Shown here: piece by piece, positions 16,779 through 38,768 of the stretch
Position numbering within the stretch: position 1 is the first letter of the stretch
Layout of the letters: the number at the start of each line of letters is the position of its first letter
Assembly (NCBI GenBank): GCA_963675745.2
Contig: CAXXWX010000019.1
Span: 128,001-192,000 of the forward strand
Direction of reading: 5' to 3'
From: Phycisphaerae bacterium
Lineage (GTDB): Bacteria; Planctomycetota; Phycisphaerae; UBA1845; Fen-1342
Length of the DNA stretch: 64,000 nucleotides
Notes under the pieces: model-generated
The model's database searches: none
The model's input: only the letters and a program-made list of their open reading frames with translations
Told to the model about the DNA's origin: nothing
Position numbers and translations under genes: made by a program

Positions 16779-19700
16779 CTATTCTGGATTGCCGTACAGG
16801 ACAAAGGCGGACCAGTAGTATGGGTGCTCGTAGGGGTGGTCGGAGTCGGCGGAGTCGGGGACTGGTTGATGGGCCACCTCCGCACCGCGTTCTTCCGGCG
16901 GCGTGTCGTCAACCATGGCTAGTGGGCCGCTGTTCTGCAACTTCCTCAGCTCATCCCGTGTCAGATTGCGCAGCCAGTGCTTGGCCTCGTCGAGCGCCGC
17001 CAGCTTCGAGAGGCATTCGCCAGGCTGATACGTGCGCCGGTGCGCCGTGCGTGGTTCGTCGAACCGGCCCAGCAGATTCTCGTACAGCCGCACCATCAGC
17101 AGGCTGGTCGCTGTGTCATCCACCTTCCACAAGCTGGCGACCACCGTCGGTACGCCCGCCGCGTGGAAGCCCAGCGGGAGCATCATCACGCTGTCGCCGC
17201 GTTTGATGCCACGGCCGGTGTCACACGCGCTCAACACGGCCAACTCGCAGCCCTTGAGCTTGCCAAGCCAGTGACTGAGCAACTCGTCGAGTGTCAGAAA
17301 GCCTATGTCGTCCGGCGAGGGACTCTCCGGCATTGTTAACGCTAGACTGGCGTCATAGGGCCGCTCGCGACTGCCCGTCAGGCCGTGCGTCGCCAAGTGC
17401 AGGAAGCGTGGCACACGCTGGCGCAACGACTCGCGCAACTGCGGAGCGGTGGCGGCATCACCGATGAGCACGATCGCTCCATCGCCGAAGAGCCCGGCGA
17501 TCGATTCCGCCTCACGCTTCGTACCGGGCAGCGGCGGCAGGGATCCGCCGAACAGACGCACCTGGTCAAGGGCCGAAACCTCAGCGGCCTTGCTCTCAAG
17601 CGAACGTGTGGCCGACGCGATCGCTCGAAGACCATTGGCCGGCGCGCTGCGGTCAAGCTGCACACCCATGCGACCGGGAGCCAGCATTGTCTCGACCTCC
17701 TCGCCGTCGCGCCACAGCGTCACCGCGACGTCGCGCGAGTCGGCGCCGCGCTCGCCGGCCTGGACCGCCTTGTTGACCTTGTCGATGGAGCCAACCAGCG
17801 CTTGGTAATCGGCTGCGTCCTGCTCGGCATAGCTGAGGATCACATCACCTCGCCGCAGGCCGGCTTGTGCAGCGTTGGAGCCTTCCACCACCATCGAGAC
17901 GAGCACGCCTTTGTCGGGATAATCCGGATCGGCGGGCGCATCACGATCGAAAATCGGGGCACCCAGCACGACCACGTTATCTGTGCCTCGCGCGGTCGAG
18001 CGTCTTTCTTGCATACGCAGATAGGCTGTTGCTGAGGGCGCGTACGCGATGGGGATGTCGATCCCGAGCGCCTTGAACGGAATTCCATCAAGCAGGCCGT
18101 CAGTGAGAATTACGAGGCGCTTGGCGCCGACGATGCTCTCCCGGATCTCATCAGGCACCAGCTTTTCGATCAGCTCCTCAGCATTGAGCGCCGGTGTTAT
18201 GGTGTTCGGCCGCGTTGCAAGTTGTTGTCGCACCGCCCGTACCCGTTCGGCCAATTCGCCAACCTCACCCACTCCCGCAGCCAGAAACACGCTACGCACT
18301 TCGCCGCAGCCCGCTGGTGGTGTAACAATCAGTAGTACGGTGTCCGCGCTCCAGGCGTAGGTCAGCACTATCTCGTCGCGTTTCAACCGTGCGCGAATCT
18401 CGCCCGTGCTCAGCACCTGCGCGACGGGAAACAGGCCGCGCAGGGCAATGAGTACATCGCTGCCGGCCTGCATCAATGTCTGTCTCTTATGCGCCACATC
18501 GTTGACCAAACCCGCGATTTCCTGGTCAAACCGCGCCAGTTTGGCTTTCCGATCATCCGGTGCGACATCGGAGCGCGATTCGAGTGCCTGACGCTCCTTT
18601 TGCCGAGCGACAAGCAGAATCTCCACGTCGTTGAGGCTGATGCGCGACTGCGCCTCATCTGCCAGAGCCATCTCCAAACGGCGCGCACGTTCAGGTTCTC
18701 CGAGAACGTGGATTTCTGCAGCCATGCTACGCGCGGGGCGTTCGAGCAGATCAAGCAACGCCCGTGCCCGGCCGCGTTCGAGAATTCCTGTCGCTTCGTT
18801 GCGTCGATTAGCTTGCAAAAGCACGCGAGCGTATGAGATTGCACGTCGGTTCAGATCGAGCTCCTGGGCGAACGCCGCTCGCTCTCGCTCACCGCCGACG
18901 ATCTGGGTTCGCATCCGTTCGCTAATCTCAAACGCCTCGCGCGAGAACGGCTCGGCCTCGGCCAGCGCTCCACGGGTTTGGAGGATGCCCGCGAGGTTGT
19001 ATAGGTAGTGCGCTACGTCAGGATGGTCGCCGGGGAAGAGGCGCTGTGCCATCGCCAGTGCGTCCTGTTGAATCGACTCGGCTTGCACAAGCCTACCGCG
19101 GTTCTTTAGGATGACCGCGAGGTCGTTCAGACTGCTGGCGATGCGCGGGTGATCGCCGGGGAAAAGCCGCTGGCGCATCGCCAGCACATCACGAAGAAGC
19201 GCTTCAACCTCGGCCAATTCCCCGCGTTTCTCCAGCGTGTGTGCCAAGTTACTCAGGCTCGTCGCGACGCTGGGGTGATCGCCTGGGAAAAGTCTCTGAC
19301 GCATCGCGAGCGCGTCCCGGTCGAGCAGCTCAGCCTCGTTCAGCATCCCGCGAGCCGACAGGAGGGACGCGAGGTTGCTTAGACTGGTTGCCACTTCGTG
19401 GTGGTCGCCGGGAAACAACCGCTGGCGCATCGCGAGAGCATCACGGTCGAGCAGCTCGGCCTCCGCCAGTGCGCCGCGGGACGACAAGACGAACGCGAGC
19501 GTGCTTAGGCTGGTCGCCACGGCCGGATGGTCGCCGGGGAAGAGCCGCCTGTACATCGCCAGCGCGTCGCGACACAGCGGTTCGGCCTCTGCCGGCGCCC
19601 CGGCGCTCTGGAGGTTGATCGCAAGGTCGTTCAGGCACCGGGCAACCTCCGGGTGATCGCCGGAAAAAAGCCGCCGGGTCATTGCCAGGGCGTCGCGGTG

Positions 19701-21503
19701 AAGTTGCTCGGCCTCGGCCAGCACCCCGCGATCTTGGAGGATCGACGCTAGACCACTCATGCGTGCCACGACAAGTGGATGATCGCCAGGATGCTGCTGT
19801 CGGCACGCCCTTAGCGCCTCACGGTAGAGCTGCTCGGACTCGGCCAGCGCTCCGCGTTCCTTGAGAATGGCCGCGAGATTGTATCGACGGGCCGGGATGT
19901 CTGGATGGCCGTCGGGGAAGAGTCGCTGCGTCATTGCCAACGCTTCGCGGAGATGCGGCTCGGCCTCCGCCAGCGCCCCGCGGAAGAAGAGGATGCCCGC
20001 GAGATTGTTCAGACTGGTCGCAACTTGAGGGTGATCCCCAGGGAACAGCCGCTGACGCATGCCCAACGCCTGTCGGAAAAGCAGTTCAGCCTCGCCGAAC
20101 TCCCCGCGGGCTTGTAGGACGTGCGCGAGGTTGTTCAAGCTGGTCGCCACCGCGACACTGTCACCGGGAAACAACCGCTGGTACATCGCCAGTGCGTCAC
20201 GGTGGAGTGATTCGGCTTCCCCCAACGCTCCTCGCGCTTCAAGGATGTTCGCCAGTCCAAGTAAGCCACTCGCCAGATCCGGATGGTCGCCTGAATGCTG
20301 TTGCTGCTTCGATGCCAGCGCCTCGCGGTAGAGCGACTCAGCAGCCTCTAATTGGCCACGGGCGGCGAGGACGCGCGCGAGACCGGTCAGGCTGGCTGCC
20401 AGGTCAGGATGGCCGCCGGGGAAAAGCCGCTGTCGCATCGCGAGGGCGTCACGATGCAGCGCCTCGGCTTCGGGCAGCGCGCCGCGCTCCTCAATGATGC
20501 GCGCGAGGTTGCTCAAGCTGTTGGCCACGTCGCGATGGTCGCGCGGGAAGAGACGGCGCCGCATCGCCAGTGCGTGGTAGCAGAGTTGCTCGGACTCTTC
20601 CCGCGCGCCGCGTGCGAAGATGGCAGACGCGATGCTTTGCAGGCTCTGCGCCACATCGGGGTGATCGCCGGCGTAGTGCCGCCGGCGCAGCATCAGCGCT
20701 GCACACAGCGCGCGCTCACTAACGGCGTGTCGTCCACTGGCCCATCCGATTGCCCCAATGTCATTGAGACAGGTTGCCAATTCGGGATGCGCGGGGGGGA
20801 AGATCCGGCGACGCACAACTAGCTGACTGACCGCTAACGGCAATGCCCGTTCGTATTCACCCGCTGCGTAGAGCCGGCCTTGCTCAGCCTTGTGTGTCTC
20901 GCTCGACGCCAACTCCCGTCGCGCGGCGGTCGTCAGCGTGCGCAGGTGCTTCAATGTCACTACTTGTTGTTGGGCATCGACGACCTCGTACCAATCCTGC
21001 GGCTGCCCAGCATCAAGCCGAATCTGCACGACATGCTCGGCCAGCCTAATGGCCTCCTCCAACGCCGGCTCCCGCATGGCTCCCGTGTCACCGAGGATGA
21101 CCTGTTTCCGTAGCCCCTCAATCCGTTGCTTCGATTCCCCGATCTGGCCCGCAGTGGGCTCTGGCAGCGTTGGTGGTTTCGGAAGCGTCTCCGGATGACG
21201 CACCATTTCGAGCACTTCCTCCAGCGTCGGAGTCGGCGCCAGGCTGGCGATGATCTCCTCCACCGTCGGCGGATTCAGCCCGGCGATGTACGCATCAAGA
21301 TCAAACGCCTCCCCGATTGAGCGGAACTCCTGTTCGCTCATGGGCCGCTCAGCATTCGGCTGCGACGTAACGTCAGTTGGATTGACAGGCGTATTCTTCC
21401 GCGATCGGTCATCCTGGTCCTGTACCGACGCCGCGCCCGGCGCAACCATGGCCACGAGCAGCAGCGCACCGCTCCCGAGACACAACGCAGTGTGTGACGA
21501 CAT
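16779..21503 (-). CDS. Exported TPR-repeat CHAT (caspase-like) protease with PDZ insertion, ~1574 aa
   Basis: GGAGG RBS and signal-like N-terminus at 21503; 15 x 42-aa TPRs (GDHPxVA..L.NLA); dyad HLATHG and LSACDTG; SLWKVDD; HPYYWSAF; PDZ-like GSNAAQAGLRRGDVI. Confidence 0.9.
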   Translation of the reverse strand: MSSHTALCLGSGALLLVAMVAPGAASVQDQDDRSRKNTPVNPTDVTSQPNAERPMSEQEFRSIGEAFDLDAYIAGLNPPTVEEIIASLAPTPTLEEVLEMVRHPETLPKPPTLPEPTAGQIGESKQRIEGLRKQVILGDTGAMREPALEEAIRLAEHVVQIRLDAGQPQDWYEVVDAQQQVVTLKHLRTLTTAARRELASSETHKAEQGRLYAAGEYERALPLAVSQLVVRRRIFPPAHPELATCLNDIGAIGWASGRHAVSERALCAALMLRRRHYAGDHPDVAQSLQSIASAIFARGAREESEQLCYHALAMRRRLFPRDHRDVANSLSNLARIIEERGALPEAEALHRDALAMRQRLFPGGHPDLAASLTGLARVLAARGQLEAAESLYREALASKQQQHSGDHPDLASGLLGLANILEARGALGEAESLHRDALAMYQRLFPGDSVAVATSLNNLAHVLQARGEFGEAELLFRQALGMRQRLFPGDHPQVATSLNNLAGILFFRGALAEAEPHLREALAMTQRLFPDGHPDIPARRYNLAAILKERGALAESEQLYREALRACRQQHPGDHPLVVARMSGLASILQDRGVLAEAEQLHRDALAMTRRLFSGDHPEVARCLNDLAINLQSAGAPAEAEPLCRDALAMYRRLFPGDHPAVATSLSTLAFVLSSRGALAEAELLDRDALAMRQRLFPGDHHEVATSLSNLASLLSARGMLNEAELLDRDALAMRQRLFPGDHPSVATSLSNLAHTLEKRGELAEVEALLRDVLAMRQRLFPGDHPRIASSLNDLAVILKNRGRLVQAESIQQDALAMAQRLFPGDHPDVAHYLYNLAGILQTRGALAEAEPFSREAFEISERMRTQIVGGERERAAFAQELDLNRRAISYARVLLQANRRNEATGILERGRARALLDLLERPARSMAAEIHVLGEPERARRLEMALADEAQSRISLNDVEILLVARQKERQALESRSDVAPDDRKAKLARFDQEIAGLVNDVAHKRQTLMQAGSDVLIALRGLFPVAQVLSTGEIRARLKRDEIVLTYAWSADTVLLIVTPPAGCGEVRSVFLAAGVGEVGELAERVRAVRQQLATRPNTITPALNAEELIEKLVPDEIRESIVGAKRLVILTDGLLDGIPFKALGIDIPIAYAPSATAYLRMQERRSTARGTDNVVVLGAPIFDRDAPADPDYPDKGVLVSMVVEGSNAAQAGLRRGDVILSYAEQDAADYQALVGSIDKVNKAVQAGERGADSRDVAVTLWRDGEEVETMLAPGRMGVQLDRSAPANGLRAIASATRSLESKAAEVSALDQVRLFGGSLPPLPGTKREAESIAGLFGDGAIVLIGDAATAPQLRESLRQRVPRFLHLATHGLTGSRERPYDASLALTMPESPSPDDIGFLTLDELLSHWLGKLKGCELAVLSACDTGRGIKRGDSVMMLPLGFHAAGVPTVVASLWKVDDTATSLLMVRLYENLLGRFDEPRTAHRRTYQPGECLSKLAALDEAKHWLRNLTRDELRKLQNSGPLAMVDDTPPEERGAEVAHQPVPDSADSDHPYEHPYYWSAFVLYGNPE

Positions 21504-21729
21504 GGTGACGGCCCTCCAAGTCAATGTACCGTACGCCGGAAATGCCCCGCCTGCCGTACTATTGTGGCCGCCACGCCCCGCTTCCACAACCTGGCCCAGC
21601 AGACCTCGCCGCGCGACCAGCAACACGGCCGCCGTACCAAGCGAATTGCCCTGATCGGAGCGCGCGGGCGCGGCACGCCGCCACCTAGCTGGGCCGTCGT
21701 GCCTGCGCCGCGTTGGATGTACTCGCCGA

Positions 21730-21825
21730 CTACACGGAAAAGACTTCCCAGAGGTTCGTGAGGATCGCCGACACGAACTCGCCCGCGCTGTAGAGCAACG
21801 GCTGAATGATGGCGTGCTGATACAT
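21730..21825 (-). CDS. Putative 31-aa small protein MYQHAIIQPLLYSAGEFVSAILTNLWEVFSV
   Basis: GAGGAG RBS 7 nt before ATG; TAG at 21730-21732; followed by GC hairpin and the CHAT gene. Confidence 0.5.
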   Translation of the reverse strand: MYQHAIIQPLLYSAGEFVSAILTNLWEVFSV

Positions 21826-22004
21826 GTGCAATCTCCTCGTGGCGTAAGTGGCCAGGCGATGAATCCGGACCATCCGAATTCCTGCTCGCTGTCGCCTTTT
21901 GACGGTGGTAAGCGGTCGCAGTTGTCTCGCTCAAGCAACCGCCTGCCTTTCACCCCCTCATGCGTAATTGCGGGCGGACATTGCGGGAATTCTTCATTTT
22001 CTAT

Positions 22005-22390
22005 AGAAAGGGGCGTAAGTAGCACTGCTGCATCAATCGCTACGGCGACGCGATCCAGGCCGTAACGCAGCAGCCGTAGCACGTCAATCAGGCTGACCCG
22101 CTCCGGTGTCGTCTCCAGATGCACCGCGATCGCCGTCGTCACCGCGCAAGCCAGGTTGTAGATCAACGCAAATGCCAGCAGTTCCCGCTCGACACCATCA
22201 GCATGTTGACTCCGCAAGACACGCATCCCCAACGTCTGCTTCAAATGCCGCAGATTGACCTCCACCTGCCAGCGACGATAGTACAACTCCGCCAACTCCG
22301 CCGCCGGATACACCTCGGCATCGAGCAACGTGGTAACCAAAGTGATCTGCCGTGTGCGATAGCCACGCCAACGCACCTCTCGCTTGACCC
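22005..22390 (-). mobile_element. IS4-family transposase C-terminal fragment
   Basis: LVTTLLD...LAELYYRRWQVE..LRHLKQTL (YREK motif); N-terminal part absent. Confidence 0.8.
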
Positions 22391-23165
22391 AATGGTCCTG
22401 TACCACGTTGCATCGCGCATCCATCGGAAGTAAAGGTGATCGCGATTTCGCAGGTCGGCGGCCTGCACCACTGATACACGCGAGTAGCCTGACAGTGTGC
22501 GTCCGTGCTAAAGGCCACGGACCCCAATCCCGAGAGTGAAGATGTCCTCGGCGCCGTCTGCGCCCGTTGTGCTGGTCAGGCCCTTGTCCGGGTCTCTCCT
22601 GTTGAACAGGCGCGATCGGCGCCGCCGGTTCGCCGGCCTTGCACAAGGCCAGTCGTCCGAATTCGCCCGGATGAGATTCTCAGTAACGACAGCATCGCGT
22701 GACAGAGTTTTTCTGGGTGTCTCCCACCAGTGCGCTCGCTTATCCTAACTGATACGACTCTTCGGTGAGTGTATTGATATCGGGGACCAACGATCGCACG
22801 GGCGATAGGATGCCGTGCGCAAGCGTGTACCTCGGTCATCGAACCTCGCCGGGGGCTTCGAAAGTGCAGACACGGTGTCGATGGAGGGTGACGTCGTGTT
22901 GGGCCGCCGCTCGCGCAACTGCTGTGATCTTCAGGGCCGGGTTCAGTTTTCCTCCGGCTGGCGGCTGATCCGCATTTGCACAGAATCCAAGTCACTCTCG
23001 AATCTGCGTAAGGACACACGTCTCGAGCGCCGTGTCGCTGCAACGAGTCACATGACGCGTTGACACGCTCGTGTCCGCGTCGAACCGAGAGCAGTGTATC
23101 TACGTCCACCGGCCAGCAACACTTACTGGCCATCGCATACCCTTCCAGGGTAGGGAGAGGCTACG

Positions 23166-31031: not shown

Positions 31032-31193
31032 GCCGCCGCCGGTGGGGGAACAGGTGTACCGCCGGGCTCGGCGCGCTCAATGAGCGTGTTGGGGACGGGG
31101 TGTGCGATGCCGTGAGCAGGAGTTGCTGACCACTAACCCCAGGCCATGCCTGAATCCCCTCCGCGCTGCGCGCATGGAACGCCGTTACCGCGG

Positions 31194-34100
31194 CTACTCA
31201 TCCCCGTTTGCGGGGCTCGCCGCCGGCTCGCTGGTGGGTTGCGTCGTCGCCGGCCGGCTCTCCGTCGTCGTTGGGTGTGTGGTGGCTTGCCACTCCTCCA
31301 GCTTCGCGCGCCACTCGGCGGCCTTGGCGTCGTAGCCTCCGTCCTGCTCTGAGGTATGCCAGCCGTCGTAGAGCTTGACGATGCGATACAGCGCTGCGCG
31401 TTTGCGGGCGTCACTTGCAGCAGAGTCATCCTTCATTCCCCTGTAGCCCTCCAGGAGCATCGGCTCCGCCTCCGGCAACCTACCCTGTCCAGCAACCGAC
31501 TCGCCCAGCATGCTCATCGTGTTGAACCGCAGCCAGTGGTCGGACATCACCTTCTCGCGAATGTCCAGGCACTCGCGCAACAACGGCTCCGCTTCCTGGT
31601 ACCTTTGCTGTTGGATGAGGTTCCAGCCCAGCATTGCAAGCGCGTATGCAACAGAAGGGGCGCTGCTCGGCTGCGCGCTTCGTTGGGCGTCCAATGCTTG
31701 GCGGTAAAAGGGCTCCGCTTCGGCATGCTGACCCAGAGATTCCAGGCACAGGGCCACGTTGTTCAGGCTCGTCTCCACGGCAGGATGATCTCTGGGATGG
31801 AGCCGCTGGGTCATCGCCAGTGCCGCTTCATACTTGGGCAGCGCCTCCGCCGACCGGCCCAAGGCTTCCAGGCAATGCGCCACATTGTGCAGGCTCGCCG
31901 CTACGTCGGGATGGTCGCCTTGATAGAGCCGCTGCTCTATCTCCAGCGCTGCTTCATACATGCGCAGCGCCTCGGCCGACCGGCCCAGTGAGTGTAGGCA
32001 ATAGGCCACGTCGCTCAGGCTTTGCACCACCTTGGGATGGTTGCTTGGCAACGCTCGTTGGCGTATTTCCAGCGCCGCCTGGTACTTGGGCAGCGCCTCC
32101 TCCGACCGGTCCAGGGACACCAGGCAGTTGGCGAAGCACGTTAGTAGTTGTGCCGTGCCGGGGTGGCTGTCCGGGTACAGACGTTGGAACATCTCTACTG
32201 CGGCTTCGAACTTGGGCAGGGCCTCCGCCGACCGTCCAAGAGAATGCAGGCAACTTGCCAGGTTCACCAGACTCTCGGCCACGTCCCCGTTGTCGCCTTC
32301 AAAGAGCCGCTGGTTCATCGCCAGAGCCGCTTCATTCATGGGTAGCGCCTCGGCTGAGCGGCCAAGCTGCTGGAGGCAAACGCCCACGTAGTTCAGGCTC
32401 CTGGCTATTTCGGAGTGATCCCCCTCGTAGAGCCGGCGATTGATCTCCAAGGCTGCCTCAAGGTTGGGCAAGGCCTCGGCAGGCCGGCCCAAGTGTTGCA
32501 GGGAGCCGGCCACCGACATCAGAGCGTGTGCCACGGATCGGTGGTCGCCGTTATAGTCGCGCTGAAATATCTCGAGCGCCTTTCTCTGTTTCGGTAGCGC
32601 CTCCGCTGGTCGGCCCAAGTAGCTCAGACAATCAGCCGCAAGCAACATGCCCCACGCGACACCGGGACTATCTCCCTGGTCGAGCCGCTTGCGCATCTCC
32701 AGCGCCGCTTCATACGTGGCCAACGACTTCGCGTAGCGGCCAAGACGAGTCAGACACCGCCCTACCTCCATCATGGCTCGCGCGACGGTGGGGTGATCGC
32801 CATCGTGAAGCTGCTGACTGATTTTCAGTGCCCGCTCGGCGACCCGGAGTGCCTCCTCGTCGCGGGCATTGCCAGAGAGAATCAGCGAGATGGTCAACCG
32901 CAAAGCGACCTCGGTCTCTGGCTGGTCCTTCAATTGGCCGGCGTCGAGCAATTCAACGGCCTGGTTCATCGCATCCGCAACTAAGAAACCTCCATGGCCA
33001 CCATAGTAGGGGTTGCACGTGACGAGGGCCTCCGTTACGAACTTGTTGATCGTTTCGGCCTTCTTGCGTTCGCTCTCCGCCGCCGACGTTGCCGCTTCGG
33101 CCAGTTCGCGTTGCTTCTGTTCCGAAAGCAGGGCTGCCTCGGCCCGCTCGCGCTCATGAACGGCCTGCCGCCAGTAAATGGTTGAGATCACGAGCGCCGC
33201 CAGAACCACCACCAGGAACGATGCCGCCACGGCGACCGCCACGCGGTAGCGCTGCAGGTTCTTGCGCAACACATACCATCCACTGTCCCGCTTCGCCTCG
33301 ATTGGCTCGCCGGCGAGGTAGTGCCGCACATCGCGTCCGAGCTCGCCCGCCGACTGGTAACGCCGCTCGGGTGCCTTACTCAGGCACTTGAGCACGATCG
33401 TCTCAACCTCGTCGTTGATCTGCCGACGGATCGTGCTCGGCCGTGCCGGTTCGGCCTGCAAAATGTTGTCGAGCACATCACGCATGTTGCCGGCCACCTC
33501 GTACGGGAAGCGCCCGGTCAACATCTGGTAGAGAATCACTCCCAGCGAGTAAACGTCCGTGCGGATGTCAATGTTCCCCGGCACGCCCTCGGCCTGCTCC
33601 GGGCTGGCCCACGGCAGGCTGCCCACGAACTGGCCGGTTAGCGTCATCAGCGACGCGCCCGTCTCACTGCCCGAGCGTGCCAGGCCGAAGTCCAGAACGT
33701 GCGGCTGACCGTTCGCGTCGACTCGGATGTTGCCGGGCTTGAGGTCGCGGTGGATCACGCCGCGCAGGTGGGCCGCGTTGACGGCTTCACAGATCTTACC
33801 GAACAGCTCAAGCGTCTCGTCGATGCTCGGCTTGTTGCGCTCGATGTGTTCATCCAGCGCCCGTCCCGAGACGTAGTCCATGACGAAGTAATGGCTGCCG
33901 GCGGCCTCGCCGCTGTCGTGCACCGTGACGATGTTTGGATGCTTGAGCTGGCCGAGGATGGTAACCTCGCGATCGAAGCGGGCCCGGTCGGCAGCGCCCC
34001 CAAAGGGCCCCTCCTTCATGACCTTGATGGCCACCTTGCGTCTGGTGGACTGCTGGATGGCTTGGTAGACCACGCCCTGCCCCCCGCGGTGCAGTTCGCG

Positions 34101-34427
34101 GATGATTGTGTAACCGGCGATCGAGCCGGGATGGGTGGGGAGTGTAGCGGACGTGTCGCCGTGACCCTCCGTGGTGTCCTCGGGTGACAGCGTCTGCGTC
34201 ACGTCGTCGTTGGCCGCGGCGCGCTGGCGAGCCTGCTCGACAAGCCGCAGTGCGGCGAGTTGCTGGCCGAGTTCCGGCATCAGTTCGGGATGTGCAGCGG
34301 CGATCTCCTCATCCAGCACTAGCTCGCCTTCAGACCGCCGTCGCGCAACGTCCGCGACGACCTCGGTAACGCGCGCGCTTCGGCTGTCAGCACCTCCGTC
34401 TCGGACCGCTGAGTCTTCAGCAGTCAT
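31194..34427 (-). CDS. Hanks-type Ser/Thr kinase with TM helix and ~10 TPRs
   Basis: RGGQGVVY, VAIK, HRDLKPGN, DFG, ASPEQ, DVYSLG; TM VAVAASFLVVVLAALVIS; GGGGAG RBS before ATG 34427. Confidence 0.93.
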   Translation of the reverse strand: MTAEDSAVRDGGADSRSARVTEVVADVARRRSEGELVLDEEIAAAHPELMPELGQQLAALRLVEQARQRAAANDDVTQTLSPEDTTEGHGDTSATLPTHPGSIAGYTIIRELHRGGQGVVYQAIQQSTRRKVAIKVMKEGPFGGAADRARFDREVTILGQLKHPNIVTVHDSGEAAGSHYFVMDYVSGRALDEHIERNKPSIDETLELFGKICEAVNAAHLRGVIHRDLKPGNIRVDANGQPHVLDFGLARSGSETGASLMTLTGQFVGSLPWASPEQAEGVPGNIDIRTDVYSLGVILYQMLTGRFPYEVAGNMRDVLDNILQAEPARPSTIRRQINDEVETIVLKCLSKAPERRYQSAGELGRDVRHYLAGEPIEAKRDSGWYVLRKNLQRYRVAVAVAASFLVVVLAALVISTIYWRQAVHERERAEAALLSEQKQRELAEAATSAAESERKKAETINKFVTEALVTCNPYYGGHGGFLVADAMNQAVELLDAGQLKDQPETEVALRLTISLILSGNARDEEALRVAERALKISQQLHDGDHPTVARAMMEVGRCLTRLGRYAKSLATYEAALEMRKRLDQGDSPGVAWGMLLAADCLSYLGRPAEALPKQRKALEIFQRDYNGDHRSVAHALMSVAGSLQHLGRPAEALPNLEAALEINRRLYEGDHSEIARSLNYVGVCLQQLGRSAEALPMNEAALAMNQRLFEGDNGDVAESLVNLASCLHSLGRSAEALPKFEAAVEMFQRLYPDSHPGTAQLLTCFANCLVSLDRSEEALPKYQAALEIRQRALPSNHPKVVQSLSDVAYCLHSLGRSAEALRMYEAALEIEQRLYQGDHPDVAASLHNVAHCLEALGRSAEALPKYEAALAMTQRLHPRDHPAVETSLNNVALCLESLGQHAEAEPFYRQALDAQRSAQPSSAPSVAYALAMLGWNLIQQQRYQEAEPLLRECLDIREKVMSDHWLRFNTMSMLGESVAGQGRLPEAEPMLLEGYRGMKDDSAASDARKRAALYRIVKLYDGWHTSEQDGGYDAKAAEWRAKLEEWQATTHPTTTESRPATTQPTSEPAASPANGDE

Positions 34428-34467
34428 CCATCTACTCCCCGTTGCCTGCGCCGAAACAGCCAAGTTC

Positions 34468-34497
34468 AGTATATGGCGAACACCAGGGCCGTGGAAA
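34468..34497 (-). promoter_or_regulatory. Putative sigma70-type promoter of kinase 1 (-10 TATACT)
   Basis: TTTCCA..CCATATACT is conserved with the paralog at 35971-36000. Confidence 0.6.
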
Positions 34498-34550
34498 GCC
34501 GGCAGCGGGGGAGCTTACGCCGTGGGTGGTACGTGGCAGGTAATGAGCAA

Positions 34551-34577
34551 GGCGGGCGATTCGGTGAATCGCCCGCC
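34551..34577 (-). repeat. Perfect 12-bp hairpin downstream of micropeptide 1
   Basis: GGCGGGCGATTC-GGT-GAATCGCCCGCC. Confidence 0.85.
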
Positions 34578-34599
34578 CGCGGAGGCCTGGGGTTTTCGG

Positions 34600-34656
34600 T
34601 TAGAACCAGGGAAAAATGAACAAGAAATTGAGCCAGTAAAACGGATCGGGCCACAT
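34600..34656 (-). CDS. 18-aa aromatic micropeptide MWPDPFYWLNFLFIFPWF
   Basis: AAAGGAG RBS; 11/18 identical to the peptide at 35809, with synonymous third-position changes. Confidence 0.8.
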   Translation of the reverse strand: MWPDPFYWLNFLFIFPWF

Positions 34657-35049
34657 ATCAGACTCCTTTGCATGATCAGGTTTCGCGTGGCTCTCGGCGT
34701 CCACAGTCCCTCTAATGCGATCTGGGCGCCGCGCGCTCTCGCCGATTCGAAAAACCTCCAACTACCCGGCTCACCATCGTCACAACGTCGGCCGTGATGG
34801 AGGCGCATTGTCGCGTTTGACCGTGTCACCAGCAGAGCGACCACGCGATCCATGATCTTGGGACTCCCCCGCCGTCAGGATCTTCACCACACCCCGCTAC
34901 TTTCGCACCAGGCGGGGCTAATCCGATTCGTCTTGTGACGCGCGACCCGATTCAATGGCATGGCGCGTACGCTTCTGCCCCCACGAGCATTGAGGCGGGG
35001 CGGCCACGCCATGTGGGGGCGAAGATCGTGAGTTGAGGAGATTGGGGGC

Positions 35050-35700
35050 ATGTGTAGGGCTGATATATTGGCTGTGCTCGTGGGCTTGGTTCAGGTGTGC
35101 GTAAGCACAACGCTGTCGGACGTGTTCAACATGCCCGACAGCCTGACCAGCCTGGGCACCGTCACGGTGGGCAACCCAGGCAACGCGCCAGACACGCGCT
35201 ATGATCCGAACGGGTATGGTAGCGTGGACTACGTGTACAACATCGGCGAGCACGGGGTGACGGCCGTGCAGTACGCGGAGTTCCTCAACGCCGTGGCCGC
35301 AATGGACACTTACGGCCTGTACAACACGAACATGTTGTCGAGCAGTAGCCGCTGTAAGATCGAACGCAGCGGCTCGTCACCCAATTACACGTATAGCGTG
35401 GCCGGCGACTGGGCCGACCGGCCGGTGAACTACGTATCGTGGGGTGACGCGGCGCGGTTCGCCAACTGGCTACACAACGACCAACCGACCGGGGTGCAGG
35501 GACTGAGTACGACCGAGGACGGGGCGTACTTCCTGGACGGCGCGACGAGCAACGAAGAACTGCTCGCCGTGACGCGCGAGGTCGACTGGAACTGGGCGAT
35601 CACCAGTGAGGACGAGTGGTACATGGCTGCGTATCACCAGAACGACGGCGTGACGGGCAACCACTTCGACTATCCAACGAGCAGCGACAGCGTGCCGAGC
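35050..35700 (+). pseudogene. 3'-truncated SUMF1/FGE-fold secreted protein
   Basis: Matches paralogs at 5372 and 6562 up to DYPTSSDSVPS; then enters the duplicated kinase leader; GNVWEW and GFR are missing. Confidence 0.82.
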
Positions 35701-35808
35701 AGCTGGAGGTTCTTTCGAGTCAAAGAGAGCGCGCCGTGCCCGGACTGCATTGATTGGAATGTGGACGCTGAGAGCCACGTGAGACCCCCTGAAACATAGG
35801 AGCCTGTT

Positions 35809-35865
35809 ATGTGGCCTGACCCGTGGTGGTTGTTCAACTTCTTCTCCATCTTCCCCTGGTGGTAA
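35809..35865 (+). CDS. 18-aa aromatic micropeptide MWPDPWWLFNFFSIFPWW
   Basis: AGGAG RBS; same length and position relative to its kinase as the 34656 peptide. Confidence 0.8.
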   Translation: MWPDPWWLFNFFSIFPWW

Positions 35866-35886
35866 TGCAGACCTGAAGAACCGGCG

Positions 35887-35913
35887 GGCGGGCGATTCTA
35901 CGAATCGCCTGCC
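35887..35913 (+). repeat. 12-bp hairpin downstream of micropeptide 2 (one G-U pair)
   Basis: GGCGGGCGATTC-TAC-GAATCGCCTGCC. Confidence 0.85.
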
Positions 35914-35970
35914 TCGCGTGTTTCAGGCCTAATGTGTCGCCTACGTAGCCCACCCTCCCCCGATTCCACC

Positions 35971-36000
35971 TTTCCCCGGCCCGCGTGCTCACCATATACT
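35971..36000 (+). promoter_or_regulatory. Putative sigma70-type promoter of kinase 2 (-10 TATACT)
   Basis: TATACT at 35995-36000, conserved with kinase 1 leader. Confidence 0.6.
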
Positions 36001-36041
36001 ACATTGGGCCAATTCAAGCGCAAGCCATGGGGAGCGTGTCG

Positions 36042-38768
36042 ATGGTTAGCGAGGACTCGGCATCAAAGGACGGCGATGCGGCCAGCCGCGAGGAGCGCAT
36101 CGTCCAGGTCATCGCGGATGTCGCGCGACGCCGGTCGGAAGGCGAGAAACTACCTGATGCACACATCACGGCGGAGCACGCGGACCTGATGCCCGAATTG
36201 GGTGAGCAGCTCGCCGCGTTGCACCGCGTCGAGCAGGGTCATCAGCGCGCCAAGATCAACGCCGACGTGACGCAAACGCGGCAGCCCGAGGACAGCGCAA
36301 ACATCGACACCCAGCCGGCCCTATCGCCGTTGAGTCAACCGGATTCAATCGCCGGCTACACGATTGTCCATGAGCTGCACCGCGGCGGACAGGGTGTTGT
36401 GTACCAGGCCATTCAGCAGTCCACCAAACGCAAAGTGGCCATCAAGGTCATGAAGGAGGGGCCGTTCGGCGATGCGGCCGAGCAAGCCCGTTTCCAGCGC
36501 GAGATCCAGATCCTCGGTCAGTTCCAGCACCCCAATATCGTGGCCATCCACGACAGCGGTATTGCCGCCGGCAGCCACTACTTTGTCATGGACTACATCC
36601 GCGGCGAGCCGCTCGATGCATACATGGCCTCGAGTAAGCGGTCGATCGACGACACGCTTCAGCTATTCGCAAAGATCTGCGACGCGGTCAACGCGGCGCA
36701 TCTGCGCGGCATCATTCACCGCGACCTGAAACCGGGCAATATCCGCATTGACACCGAGGGCGAGCCACACATTCTCGACTTCGGACTGGCGAAGGTCACC
36801 TCGGGTACGGACGCAACGCAGATGACCATGACCGGGATGTTCCTGGGGTCATTGCCGTGGGCCAGCCCGGAGCAGGCCGAGGGGGCGCCGGATCAGATCG
36901 ATGTGCGGACGGACGTGTATTCGCTGGGCGTGCTGCTGTATCAGATGCTGACGGGCAGATTCCCATACGAAGTCGTCGGGAACATGCGTGATGTGTTGGA
37001 CAACATCCTGAAGGCCACGCCAGCCAGGCCGAGCACCGTTCGCCGTCAAATCAATGATGAGGTCGAGACGATCGCCCTCAAGTGCCTGAGCAAGGAGAAG
37101 GAACGGCGTTATCAGTCTGCGGGCGAGTTGGCCCGCGACGTCCAGCGTTACCTGAAAGGCGAGCCGATCGAAGCCAAACGCGACAGTGGCTGGTACGTGC
37201 TCAAGAAGAGCCTGCGGCGGCATCGTGCCGCTGTTGCGGTAGCGGCGGCGTTTTTGCTCATACTTGGGGCCGGGTTGGCGACGTCACTCAGCCTGTGGCG
37301 GCAAGCAGTGCGCGAGCGGGATAGGGCGGTGGCGGCGGAGCAAAGCGAGGGCCGGCAGCGAAGGCGGGCCGAGGATGAGGCCCACAACGCGCGACTGGCC
37401 GAAGCCGAGCAACGCCGCCTGGCTCAGGCCGAACAGCGCGAGCGGAAGAAGGCGGAGGCAATCAACCGATTCGTGGGGAAGACGCTCGTGTCGTCAGATC
37501 CCCACCAAGGTGGCGAGTACGGGTTCCTGGTGGCAGATGCGATGGAACAGGCCATCGACCTGCTCGATGCCGGCGAGTTGCGCGACCAGCCGGAAATTGA
37601 AACCGCCCTGAGGCTGAAGATCGCCCAGATCCTCGCCGGCAATGCACGCTCGGAGTTGGCGCTGAGACTTGCCGAGCGCGCCCTGGAAACAGATCAGGCG
37701 CTCCATCCAGGTGATCATCCTGACGTGGCTGCGAGCCTGAGCGCGGTGGGTAACTGCTTGCGCTTGCGGGGTCAGTTGCAGGAGGCGCTGGTCAGGCTCC
37801 AGGCAGCGCTCGAGATGCGCCAACGGCTCTTCTCCGGCGACCATCGCGATGTCGCGGCGAGTCTGAACGACGTCGGTGGTTGCCTCGAAGCCCTGGGCTC
37901 ACCCGTATACGCGATTACCAAGTTCGAAGCCGCCCTGGGGATGTACCAACGACTTTACCCCGGCGACCACAGCAAGGTGGCGGCAGCACTGAGCAACACG
38001 GCCTCCTGCATGAAGTCCCTGGGACGACTCGATGAGGCGCTTACGATGTTTGAATCGGCGCTGGCTATGCGACAGCGACTGTTCGAAGGCGATCATCCTG
38101 ACATTGCGGCAAGCCTGAACAACTTGGGTGGATGCCTGGAGGCCCTAGGCCGGCCCTCTGATGCCCTGCCCATGTATGAGGCGGCGCTGGGAATGCGCCA
38201 GCGCTTGTTCCCAGGGGACCACCCCGGCGTGGCAACGAGTCTGAACAACGTGGCCGAGTGTCTGCAATACCTGGGTAGATACGAAGAGGCGCTACCCAAG
38301 CATGAAACGGCGCTGGAGATGTGGCAGCGGCTCTTTCCGGGCGATCACCCTGATGTGGCGGTGGGCCTGAACAATCTGGCCTCCGCCCTGCGTTCTATTG
38401 GTCGGCTGGAGGAGGCGCTGCCAAAGTACGAAGCGGCGCTGGAGATGAGGCGGCGTCTCTTCAAGGGTGATCATCCCGCCGTGGCGCGAAGCCTGAACAA
38501 CGTGGCCCGGTGTCTGGACAGCATGGGCCGCTCGGACGAGGCTTTGCCCAAGTTCGAGGCAGCGCTCGAGATGTACCAACGGCTCATCGCGGACGACCAT
38601 TCCGTCGTGGCGACGTGCCTGAACAACGTGGCTGCATGCTTGGACAACCTCCGGCGCCACGCCGAGGCAGTGCCGAAATACGAGGCGGCGCTGGAGATGT
38701 TCAAACGAGTTCTGCCGCCCGGCCAGCGCGTGCTGACGGTTGTTGCCGGTGCGATGATCCTCCAATGA
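36042..38768 (+). CDS. Ser/Thr kinase-TM-TPR paralog, C-terminally truncated by IS remnant
   Basis: Same kinase motifs as 31194-34427; 8 TPRs; periodicity breaks at LPPG (~38724). Confidence 0.9.
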   Translation: MVSEDSASKDGDAASREERIVQVIADVARRRSEGEKLPDAHITAEHADLMPELGEQLAALHRVEQGHQRAKINADVTQTRQPEDSANIDTQPALSPLSQPDSIAGYTIVHELHRGGQGVVYQAIQQSTKRKVAIKVMKEGPFGDAAEQARFQREIQILGQFQHPNIVAIHDSGIAAGSHYFVMDYIRGEPLDAYMASSKRSIDDTLQLFAKICDAVNAAHLRGIIHRDLKPGNIRIDTEGEPHILDFGLAKVTSGTDATQMTMTGMFLGSLPWASPEQAEGAPDQIDVRTDVYSLGVLLYQMLTGRFPYEVVGNMRDVLDNILKATPARPSTVRRQINDEVETIALKCLSKEKERRYQSAGELARDVQRYLKGEPIEAKRDSGWYVLKKSLRRHRAAVAVAAAFLLILGAGLATSLSLWRQAVRERDRAVAAEQSEGRQRRRAEDEAHNARLAEAEQRRLAQAEQRERKKAEAINRFVGKTLVSSDPHQGGEYGFLVADAMEQAIDLLDAGELRDQPEIETALRLKIAQILAGNARSELALRLAERALETDQALHPGDHPDVAASLSAVGNCLRLRGQLQEALVRLQAALEMRQRLFSGDHRDVAASLNDVGGCLEALGSPVYAITKFEAALGMYQRLYPGDHSKVAAALSNTASCMKSLGRLDEALTMFESALAMRQRLFEGDHPDIAASLNNLGGCLEALGRPSDALPMYEAALGMRQRLFPGDHPGVATSLNNVAECLQYLGRYEEALPKHETALEMWQRLFPGDHPDVAVGLNNLASALRSIGRLEEALPKYEAALEMRRRLFKGDHPAVARSLNNVARCLDSMGRSDEALPKFEAALEMYQRLIADDHSVVATCLNNVAACLDNLRRHAEAVPKYEAALEMFKRVLPPGQRVLTVVAGAMILQ

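Follow-up and report, generated by a model that had tools for sequence, protein, structure and literature searches.

What controls the Ser/Thr kinases that carry tetratricopeptide repeat (TPR) arrays in Planctomycetota? Kinases with periplasmic TPR arrays are described as hugely expanded in this phylum, and their inputs and control as mostly unknown (PMC11032199). We analysed a 64,000-nt stretch of a Phycisphaerae bacterium genome (assembly GCA_963675745.2, contig CAXXWX010000019.1, positions 128,001-192,000 of the forward strand; hereafter the window, numbered from its first letter) in which two kinase-TPR genes stand in divergent orientation, each behind a conserved leader that holds a tiny reading frame. 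This small open reading frame (sORF) is invisible to gene callers and has diverged between the two leaders in a coding-type pattern. The question raised by the locus is what the sORF does. Our preferred answer, which we hold tentatively, is that it specifies a leader peptide that would act in cis on the kinase. One genome and one 537-nt fragment are all that represent the sORF so far, and the kinase family in general lacks it.

Two kinase genes share an 18-codon upstream frame

The first frame, sORF A (34600..34656, minus strand), comprises 18 codons and a TAA stop and encodes MWPDPFYWLNFLFIFPWF. Its counterpart, sORF B (35809..35865, plus strand), has the same length and stop and encodes MWPDPWWLFNFFSIFPWW. 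Both have the Shine-Dalgarno (SD) sequence AGGAG 6 nt from the ATG (34663..34667, minus, for A; 35798..35802, plus, for B), and the peptides are identical at 11 of 18 residues. A preliminary description of this DNA had reported these paired frames, with their AGGAG sequences and shared residues, and direct reading of the sequence bears it out.

The genes downstream encode similar proteins. Kinase A (31194..34427, minus; 1077 aa) consists of a Pkinase domain, one hydrophobic helix and a long TPR_12/TPR_10 array, and kinase B (36042..38768, plus; 908 aa) of a Pkinase domain, a helix and a TPR array with a shortened C-terminus. Pfam places the Pkinase domain (E 1e-46) ahead of seven or eight TPR_12 stretches in both proteins and finds no helix-turn-helix (HTH) or Rap-type domain in either; the hydrophobic helix between the two parts is seen in both translations. 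This kinase-helix-TPR architecture is described as common in Planctomycetota, with the TPR part predicted to be periplasmic and lineage-specific duplications frequent (PMC11032199).

The same description had proposed that an entire unit is conserved, running from a promoter-like motif through the peptide to the kinase. Most of this holds: the peptide, a 12-bp hairpin, a TATACT hexamer, the spacing of ~175 bp (172 nt from sORF stop to kinase ATG in A and 176 nt in B) and the order kinase-transmembrane (TM)-TPR are common to both units. The part left unconfirmed is the promoter-like motif upstream of the sORF. A consensus scan gave no such motif ahead of either sORF, and its single match was the sigma-70-like site TTTCCA-18-TATACT ahead of kinase A (34468..34497, minus; TATACT at 34468-34473). 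The equivalent TTTCCC-18-TATACT ahead of kinase B (35971..36000, plus; TATACT at 35995-36000) has a -35 hexamer under the scan threshold.

The sORF diverges in the manner of a coding sequence

The two sORFs differ at 15 positions, which fall 1/5/9 over codon positions 1/2/3. Five codons (P3, D4, N10, I14 and F15) differ synonymously; these are the differences named in the earlier work (CCC/CCT, GAT/GAC, AAT/AAC, ATT/ATC and TTT/TTC), and all are present. Seven codons carry replacements, of which three exchange one aromatic residue for another (F6W, Y7W and F18W) at a cost of two base changes each, and in each peptide 9 of the 18 residues are aromatic. By the NG86 method the synonymous differences number 5 over 7.67 sites and the non-synonymous ones 10 over 46.3 sites, which gives a ratio of non-synonymous to synonymous divergence (dN/dS) of ~0.17, near the kinases' own ratio. 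This ratio, the aromatic-for-aromatic swaps and the retention of the sORF beside both old kinase paralogues all favour the previous proposal that selection acts on the peptide.

We compared this pattern with that produced by random change, placing 15 substitutions on either copy in 200,000 trials each under uniform or GC-weighted spectra. The reading frame remained intact in 8-11% of trials. At least five synonymous codons arose in 0.3-0.65%, at least three aromatic swaps in 0.2-0.66% and at least nine third-position changes in 1.4%, and at least nine aromatics were retained in 0.5-0.9%. An intact frame, five synonymous codons and three swaps occurred jointly at a frequency of no more than 5e-6, a figure that is generous, because the statistics were picked after the data had been seen and on two sequences only, but whose direction is clear.

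The 96 nt immediately upstream (34657..34752, minus, in unit A; 35713..35808, plus, in unit B) align without gaps at 73% identity. They are as conserved as the sORF, but their differences fall 11/8/7 by codon position and B has a stop in this stretch, so that the block reads as non-coding. For the sORF itself, the substitution pattern indicates that it is very probably translated, with selection on its peptide. The composition of the peptides is also rare: among 3,747 sORFs of 10-45 codons with an SD and an ATG in the whole genome, just two are at least 40% aromatic, and these are sORFs A and B.

The whole leader is conserved between two old paralogues

The units are inverted repeats, 72-76% complementary from the kinases through the leaders, with outer edges at 34752 and 35713. 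As judged by their divergence, they are old inverted paralogues. The kinase proteins are 62% identical, with dN of 0.24-0.39 and dS of 1.25-1.6 (NG86), and 143 of 306 four-fold sites (46%) are identical, which places neutral sites close to saturation. By comparison, 229 of the 330 leader columns between the repeat edge and the kinase ATG are identical (69%), with 6 gap columns. Gene conversion was considered as a source of this conservation and rejected on the third positions of the kinase codons, which are ~50% identical in each 60-codon window throughout the genes, with no rise at the 5' end. Because neutral sites are nearly saturated and third-position identity is flat, the whole leader, beyond the sORF, is judged to be under constraint.

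Identity varies along the leader, from 73% in the upstream 81 nt and 72% in the sORF to 52% in the spacer between sORF stop and hairpin, 89% in the hairpin and 64-65% in the remainder. The hairpin is a 12-bp stem with a 3-nt loop in both units. It lies 22 nt past the sORF stop in A, where the stem is GC-rich (34551..34577, minus), and 21 nt past it in B (35887..35913, plus). The two hairpins are identical at 24 of 27 positions, and the sole change in the stem gives a G-U pair on the sORF-sense RNA of B. Downstream of the hairpins, the leader blocks are CTCCCCCG, CTTTCC, CGGCCC and CCATATACT. An Rfam search returned only a sub-threshold match of the P10 small RNA over hairpin A, an identity that we rejected at 19.2 bits against a gathering score of 37.

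Within the upstream block lies an invariant 18-nt sequence, GTGGACGCYGAGAGCCAC (34687..34704, minus, in A, where it is 30 nt ahead of the ATG; 35761-35778, plus, in B). It would read VDAESH in the sORF frame and recurs in the partial homologue described below. Given the lack of coding periodicity in its frame, we take it to be a candidate DNA or RNA element. An ECF-type promoter within it was considered in a by-eye look only and set aside as inconsistent among the three sequences.

The sORF is confined to one lineage

In this genome, an nhmmer profile of the leader finds the two copies only, and there are two occurrences of the hairpin motif. The six frames contain 40 WPDP tetrapeptides, and the two that lead into an aromatic run are those of sORFs A and B. 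The two copies are one duplicated unit, and hence represent one origin and not two independent occurrences.

Searches at other kinase genes were negative. No such sORF was found within ~700 nt upstream of any of the 26 other closest kinase paralogues in this genome; one of them has an unrelated 33-aa Ala/Arg-rich sORF that passes a loose filter, and the script used recovers both true copies. At kinase loci of five genomes of the genus and family, the aromatic window was present at none of 15. A quick tree places kinases A and B inside a clade of seven (SH-aLRT 93) with no resolution of its internal order. The other five members, two paralogues of this genome and three kinases of other genomes, are the kinases nearest to A and B, and all five have different N-termini and no sORF. 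The preliminary description had seen in the two units a pairing of peptide and cognate kinase-TPR receptor, and had named absence of the sORF upstream of homologous kinases as a refuting result. As a general pairing, the idea is refuted by the absence of the sORF from the 26 paralogues and the 15 loci, the five nearest kinases among them. The idea that a variable core of the peptide confers specificity rests on a single pair, and nothing that we tested supports a role of the peptide as a ligand of the TPR receptor.

The search pattern put forward with that idea, a ribosome-binding site followed by MWPDP..FPW, fared no better: the strict MWPDP..FPW form is absent from all 40 relatives, and its 12 loci in GTDB-wide genome contigs and 20 in metagenome contigs are all chance matches, being out of frame, stop-interrupted or not aromatic. 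Because the strict form would miss more distant versions such as the partial homologue, we also applied a looser pattern, which gave no match in 71 other genomes of the family or in 278 other genomes of the order. A profile of the two peptides run over 400 other genomes of the class gave a best foreign E of 0.05 per genome and weak matches in 32 genomes. Three of these were inspected, and the most sORF-like match was rejected as lying antisense within a 693-aa ORF.

A partial homologue, P0002, was found by phmmer with the 53-aa open frame of A as query against 1.84 billion representatives (E 5.7e-5). It is a single-member entry of 95 aa from one 537-nt contig, with the C-terminal end ...GRIRENVDAESHNQGNNAKESIMWPDPFWLFWWF. 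P0002 retains VDAESH, AKES in the SD region (which would hold an SD) and MWPDPF followed by an aromatic run, in which 9 of 12 positions match B by a count made by eye. An ungapped alignment over 44 positions gives 21 matches to A and 20 to B; P0002 is about equally near to both and therefore represents a third lineage. P0002 is known at the protein level, and its sORF part spans 12 residues. Word-index protein searches with the 53-aa frame and with P0002 gave nothing more, by a method too insensitive to link A with B. Thus, the sORF is confined to this lineage, and among the genomes scanned no linkage of sORF and kinase is demonstrable in any other.

A proposed leader peptide acting in cis

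The leaders hold features that could connect the sORF to expression of the kinase. Kinases A and B have the SD sequence GGGGAG 7 nt from the ATG (34435..34440, minus; 36029..36034, plus), and in the minimum-free-energy (MFE) folds of both copies it is paired with CUCCC(C). The complementary DNA is CTCCCCCG at 34506-34513 (minus) in A and CTCCCCC at 35955-35961 (plus) in B, each inside a C-rich, G-poor tract that begins where the hairpin ends (34474..34550, minus, with 33 C and 17 G in 77 nt; 35914..35994, plus, with 36 C and 16 G in 81 nt). In the long RNA the probability that the kinase SD is unpaired is ~0, and in the short RNA starting from TATACT the SD is largely open. On the sense strand, the C/G ratio over the 80 nt past the hairpin reaches 1.94 and 2.25, values within the highest 1.0% and 0.3% of genome windows. 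The tract has the appearance expected of a Rho-loading (rut) site, of which composition alone is no proof, and the genome encodes Rho (Rho_RNA_bind, 120 bits, in a 518-aa frame).

We therefore consider it possible, and tentatively prefer, that the sORF is a translated upstream frame for a half-aromatic, Pro-containing leader peptide, because conservation extends over the whole leader, both copies retain strand, spacing and SD, the kinase SD is predicted to be masked, and a rut-like tract occurs in a genome with Rho. The sORF would be one element of a conserved leader of ~330 nt that travels with two old kinase-TPR paralogues. Transcripts from an upstream start would run through the sORF, the stable hairpin and then the C-rich, G-poor tract, and in these long transcripts the kinase SD would be paired with CUCCCC. 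Translation of the Trp/Phe/Pro-rich sORF, or pausing of the ribosome on it, may then determine the amount of transcription or translation that extends to the kinase, in a manner like that of tnaC or mgtL, and the proximal TATACT promoter may give a short kinase mRNA free of masking. We infer translation, co-transcription and each of these control steps. Conservation of the whole leader, and not of the peptide alone, fits a cis-regulatory leader at least as well as it fits peptide signalling. Characterised bacterial 5'-leader ORFs of at most 18 codons are mostly regulatory leader peptides.

Several observations count against a cis-acting leader peptide. When the sORF region is held single-stranded in silico, the masking pairs keep probabilities of 0.23-0.89 in A and 0.70-0.73 in B; the SD is still masked with the sORF blocked, and simple unmasking of the ermC type is therefore not predicted. 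The hairpin lacks a U-tract, a scan gave 0 terminator-like sites, and in neither copy do the MFE, centroid or constrained folds offer the hairpin an antiterminator competitor. Fold z-scores are modest (-2.0 and -1.5). The conserved TTTCC(A/C)-18-TATACT suggests that the kinase has a promoter of its own and that the sORF is perhaps a separate cistron, and the synonymous retention of P3, D4, N10 and I14 together with the free swapping of aromatic residues would also fit a peptide that functions by itself. The whole case is built on two full sequences and one fragment.

One further complementarity was seen in unit A. The segment 34584-34603, in the spacer past the sORF, is 80% complementary over 20 nt to 31126-31145, ~50 nt beyond the kinase A stop. 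Both segments would lie on the same long minus-strand RNA, and the match is probably due to chance.

Alternative roles for the sORF

The peptide could instead act in trans, as a membrane micropeptide paired with its kinase in the manner of MgrB or SafA with PhoQ, its aromatic tail in the membrane, its invariant MWPDP head or its tail touching the TM or TPR part of the kinase, and the two diverged peptides matched to two diverged kinases. Tuning of sensor kinases by small membrane proteins has precedents (PMC2789325, PMC12648545). The selection evident on amino acids, non-aromatic residues included, and the conservative nature of the aromatic swaps agree with such a role, as do the retention of both copies since the old duplication and the strong hydrophobicity of the peptides, in which 67-72% of residues belong to the WFYLIVMAC set. 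The proposed partners are single-helix membrane proteins, of a type whose TPR arrays are predicted to be periplasmic in the phylum (PMC11032199), and an sORF with its own SD and a hairpin 21-22 nt past its stop resembles a small independent gene. However, the longest hydrophobic run, between P5 and the C-terminus, is ~13 residues and contains N10 and P16, which is too short to span a membrane as a helix (~18-20). The peptide starts MWPDP and lacks a signal sequence, a basic N-region and a cleavage region, and genes for export or processing are missing from the neighbourhood. Moreover, none of the other kinase-TPR genes examined carries the sORF, its linkage to the kinase was copied in one duplication and not re-selected, and the conserved non-coding parts of the leader are left unaccounted for. 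We regard this role as somewhat unlikely.

A more specific proposal joins the two roles in a co-evolving pair. The aromatic peptide would be made from the leader of the kinase, lodge in the membrane and bind the TM or juxtamembrane part of its cognate kinase, or a kinesin-light-chain (KLC)-like periplasmic TPR, through its Trp-Pro-Asp head. This we judge to be unlikely. A complex prediction for kinase B residues 375-908 with the 18-aa peptide scored 0.02, which is evidence neither way for a peptide under the calibrated size. If such a pair were real, no small-protein regulator of a bacterial Ser/Thr kinase-TPR receptor would have been described before it; each paralogous kinase would have a private modulator, and the leader peptide would act both in cis and in trans.

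It is quite unlikely that the sORF encodes a small hydrophobic protein unrelated to the kinase, for example a membrane-active or type-I-toxin-like peptide that is adjacent to it only through the duplicated segment. Ibs toxins are 18-19 aa long, and the sORF peptide would resemble them in size and hydrophobicity. The SD and downstream hairpin of the sORF and the single origin of its linkage to the kinase are what such a gene might show, but a consensus scan of 34300-36200 gave no promoter-like site for an antisense RNA on the opposite strand, the genome holds only two copies, and neither the conserved spacing to the kinase nor the SD-masking element is accounted for.

The weakest reading holds that the ORF goes untranslated, as a by-product of a leader conserved for its non-coding content (promoter, RNA structure), and that its peptide has no function. 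It would fit the near-equal identity of the flanking non-coding leader (73%) and the sORF (72%) and the lack of a homologue outside the lineage, but is very improbable in view of a coding-type pattern seldom reached by random substitution, the retention of ATG, stop, frame and SD, and the start and MWPDPF run preserved in P0002. One RNA feature bears on it from both sides. In the RNAalifold model, codons 6-7 of the sORF (UUUAC in A, GGUGG in B) form a 5-bp helix with GUAAG/CCACC, which stands just ahead of CUCCCC. The helix has four compensatory pairs, a count reached in 0 of 200 column shuffles and with 0 of 47 false pairing rules. Its probability in each of the single-sequence ensembles, however, is ~0, and imposing it carries a cost of 8.5-9 kcal/mol. 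We note it as statistically unusual in this model and leave it unexplained.

Sequence around the two units

Unit B adjoins a truncated FGE-sulfatase-like gene (35050..35799, plus; 249 aa) that is not part of the unit. Its likeness to 10 full-length paralogues (350-400 aa) ends at residue 218 (~35704), just before the repeat edge, and its frame continues into unit B as far as a TAG 3 codons ahead of the sORF B ATG. The FGE paralogues in this genome have a signal peptide, the FGE domain and then a PEP-CTERM-like tail or a tail of dockerin-like GDxNxDG repeats. This arrangement suggests that unit B was inserted into, or recombined at, an FGE-sulfatase-like gene. The frame of sORF A is open over 53 codons and sORF B is in frame with the FGE-like ORF. 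The sORF as the C-terminus of a longer protein was rejected on account of the TAG in B, and is also countered by the 11/8/7 distribution of upstream differences and by the FGE homology ending before the repeat edge.

The kinase family of this genome is large and still duplicating. A tblastn search with the N-terminal half of the kinase gave more than 50 matches on 20 contigs. Near-identical pairs of recent origin are among them, such as C24:5019/C26:44838 and C15:62532/C27:7504 in the tree. Contig C15 opens (1-1600) with sequence 96% identical to 37127-38725 and then runs into further TPR sequence, from which the window copy diverges: the likeness ends at ~38725, and kinase B stops 14 codons later. 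By this match, unit B is a partial copy, made recently from a B-type locus of which the leader is unassembled, and the C15 twin of kinase B would probably carry a third sORF in its unassembled 5' part. Elsewhere in the window, a 1955-aa frame on the minus strand (16779-22646) has 11 TPR_10 stretches, a C-terminal CHAT protease and a DDE transposase fragment near its N-terminus. On contig C26 at ~541910 (plus), away from kinase matches, there is a 32-codon open stretch, ...VWPFWSFWPFWSFWPS, with a Trp/Phe-rich hexapeptide repeat.

Contigs from four DNA-type runs cover the units at low, broken depth; none of those listed extends across 35720-35903, so they give no sORF variants. In two runs of one sample, one contig per run joins 34576 to 35865 (depth 3.7-5), so that hairpin A directly abuts the final 32 nt of an opposite-strand, B-like sORF. 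The join may reflect a switch made in assembly between the near-identical hairpins, or a further variant of the unit without the stop-to-hairpin spacer. A 7.4-kb contig from the same sample matches 34680-34884, in front of sORF A, and differs at 22 of these 205 nt; the likeness ends just before the SD, and the contig may come from a related organism or from a paralogue with a diverged sORF region.

Comparison with known systems

The closest parallels to a cis-acting leader peptide are tnaC and mgtL. As in those systems, a short, SD-bearing ORF lies in the 5' leader on the same strand, Trp, Asp and Pro are among the conserved residues, the spacer to the regulated gene is ~170-220 nt, a C-rich, G-poor tract lies downstream, and Rho is encoded. 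The tnaC leader is described as 24 aa long with critical Trp, Asp, Ile and Pro residues, stalling at its stop codon and blocking Rho (PMC8429421). There is no sequence likeness to either, however, and the gene regulated here would be a Hanks-type kinase and not an amino-acid or ion gene; a strong hairpin also separates the sORF from the C-rich tract, and a promoter-like site lies inside the spacer.

The attenuators trpL and pheL resemble the sORF in having 14-18 codons rich in aromatics followed by a GC-rich hairpin. Our leaders, by contrast, lack both a U-tract and antiterminator pairing, codons for Trp, Phe and Tyr replace one another from copy to copy, selection appears to reach non-aromatic residues and the downstream gene is not biosynthetic. 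The leader peptide peTrpL is described as able to act in trans as well. With ermC and cat our leaders share, in predicted folds, a downstream SD masked by pairing with the leader, but unmasking by a ribosome on the leader is not reproduced in silico.

MgrB and SafA offer the same logic of a small hydrophobic peptide that tunes a membrane kinase. Proteins of this type measure 47-65 aa, have a complete transmembrane helix and target histidine kinases, and their genes lie outside the leader of the kinase, whereas the peptide here is 18 aa with a hydrophobic stretch of ~13 residues and is predicted from sequence. The RRNPP systems (Rap/Phr, PlcR/PapR) likewise combine a TPR domain with an adjacent gene for a short peptide. 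Their receptors are cytoplasmic TPR proteins with HTH or phosphatase output, and their peptides are secreted as pro-peptides and re-imported. The TPR array here instead stands behind a membrane helix on a kinase that has no HTH or Rap-type domain, and the peptide has neither a signal sequence nor a pro-region.

A limited literature search turned up neither a described small protein nor a described leader peptide linked to a Hanks-type kinase, and gave no printed occurrence of the motif. Small ORFs in leaders or upstream regions are already known as a class, and this one is restricted to one lineage. If the sORF controls or binds the kinase, it would provide a handle on the regulation of at least one branch of these kinases.

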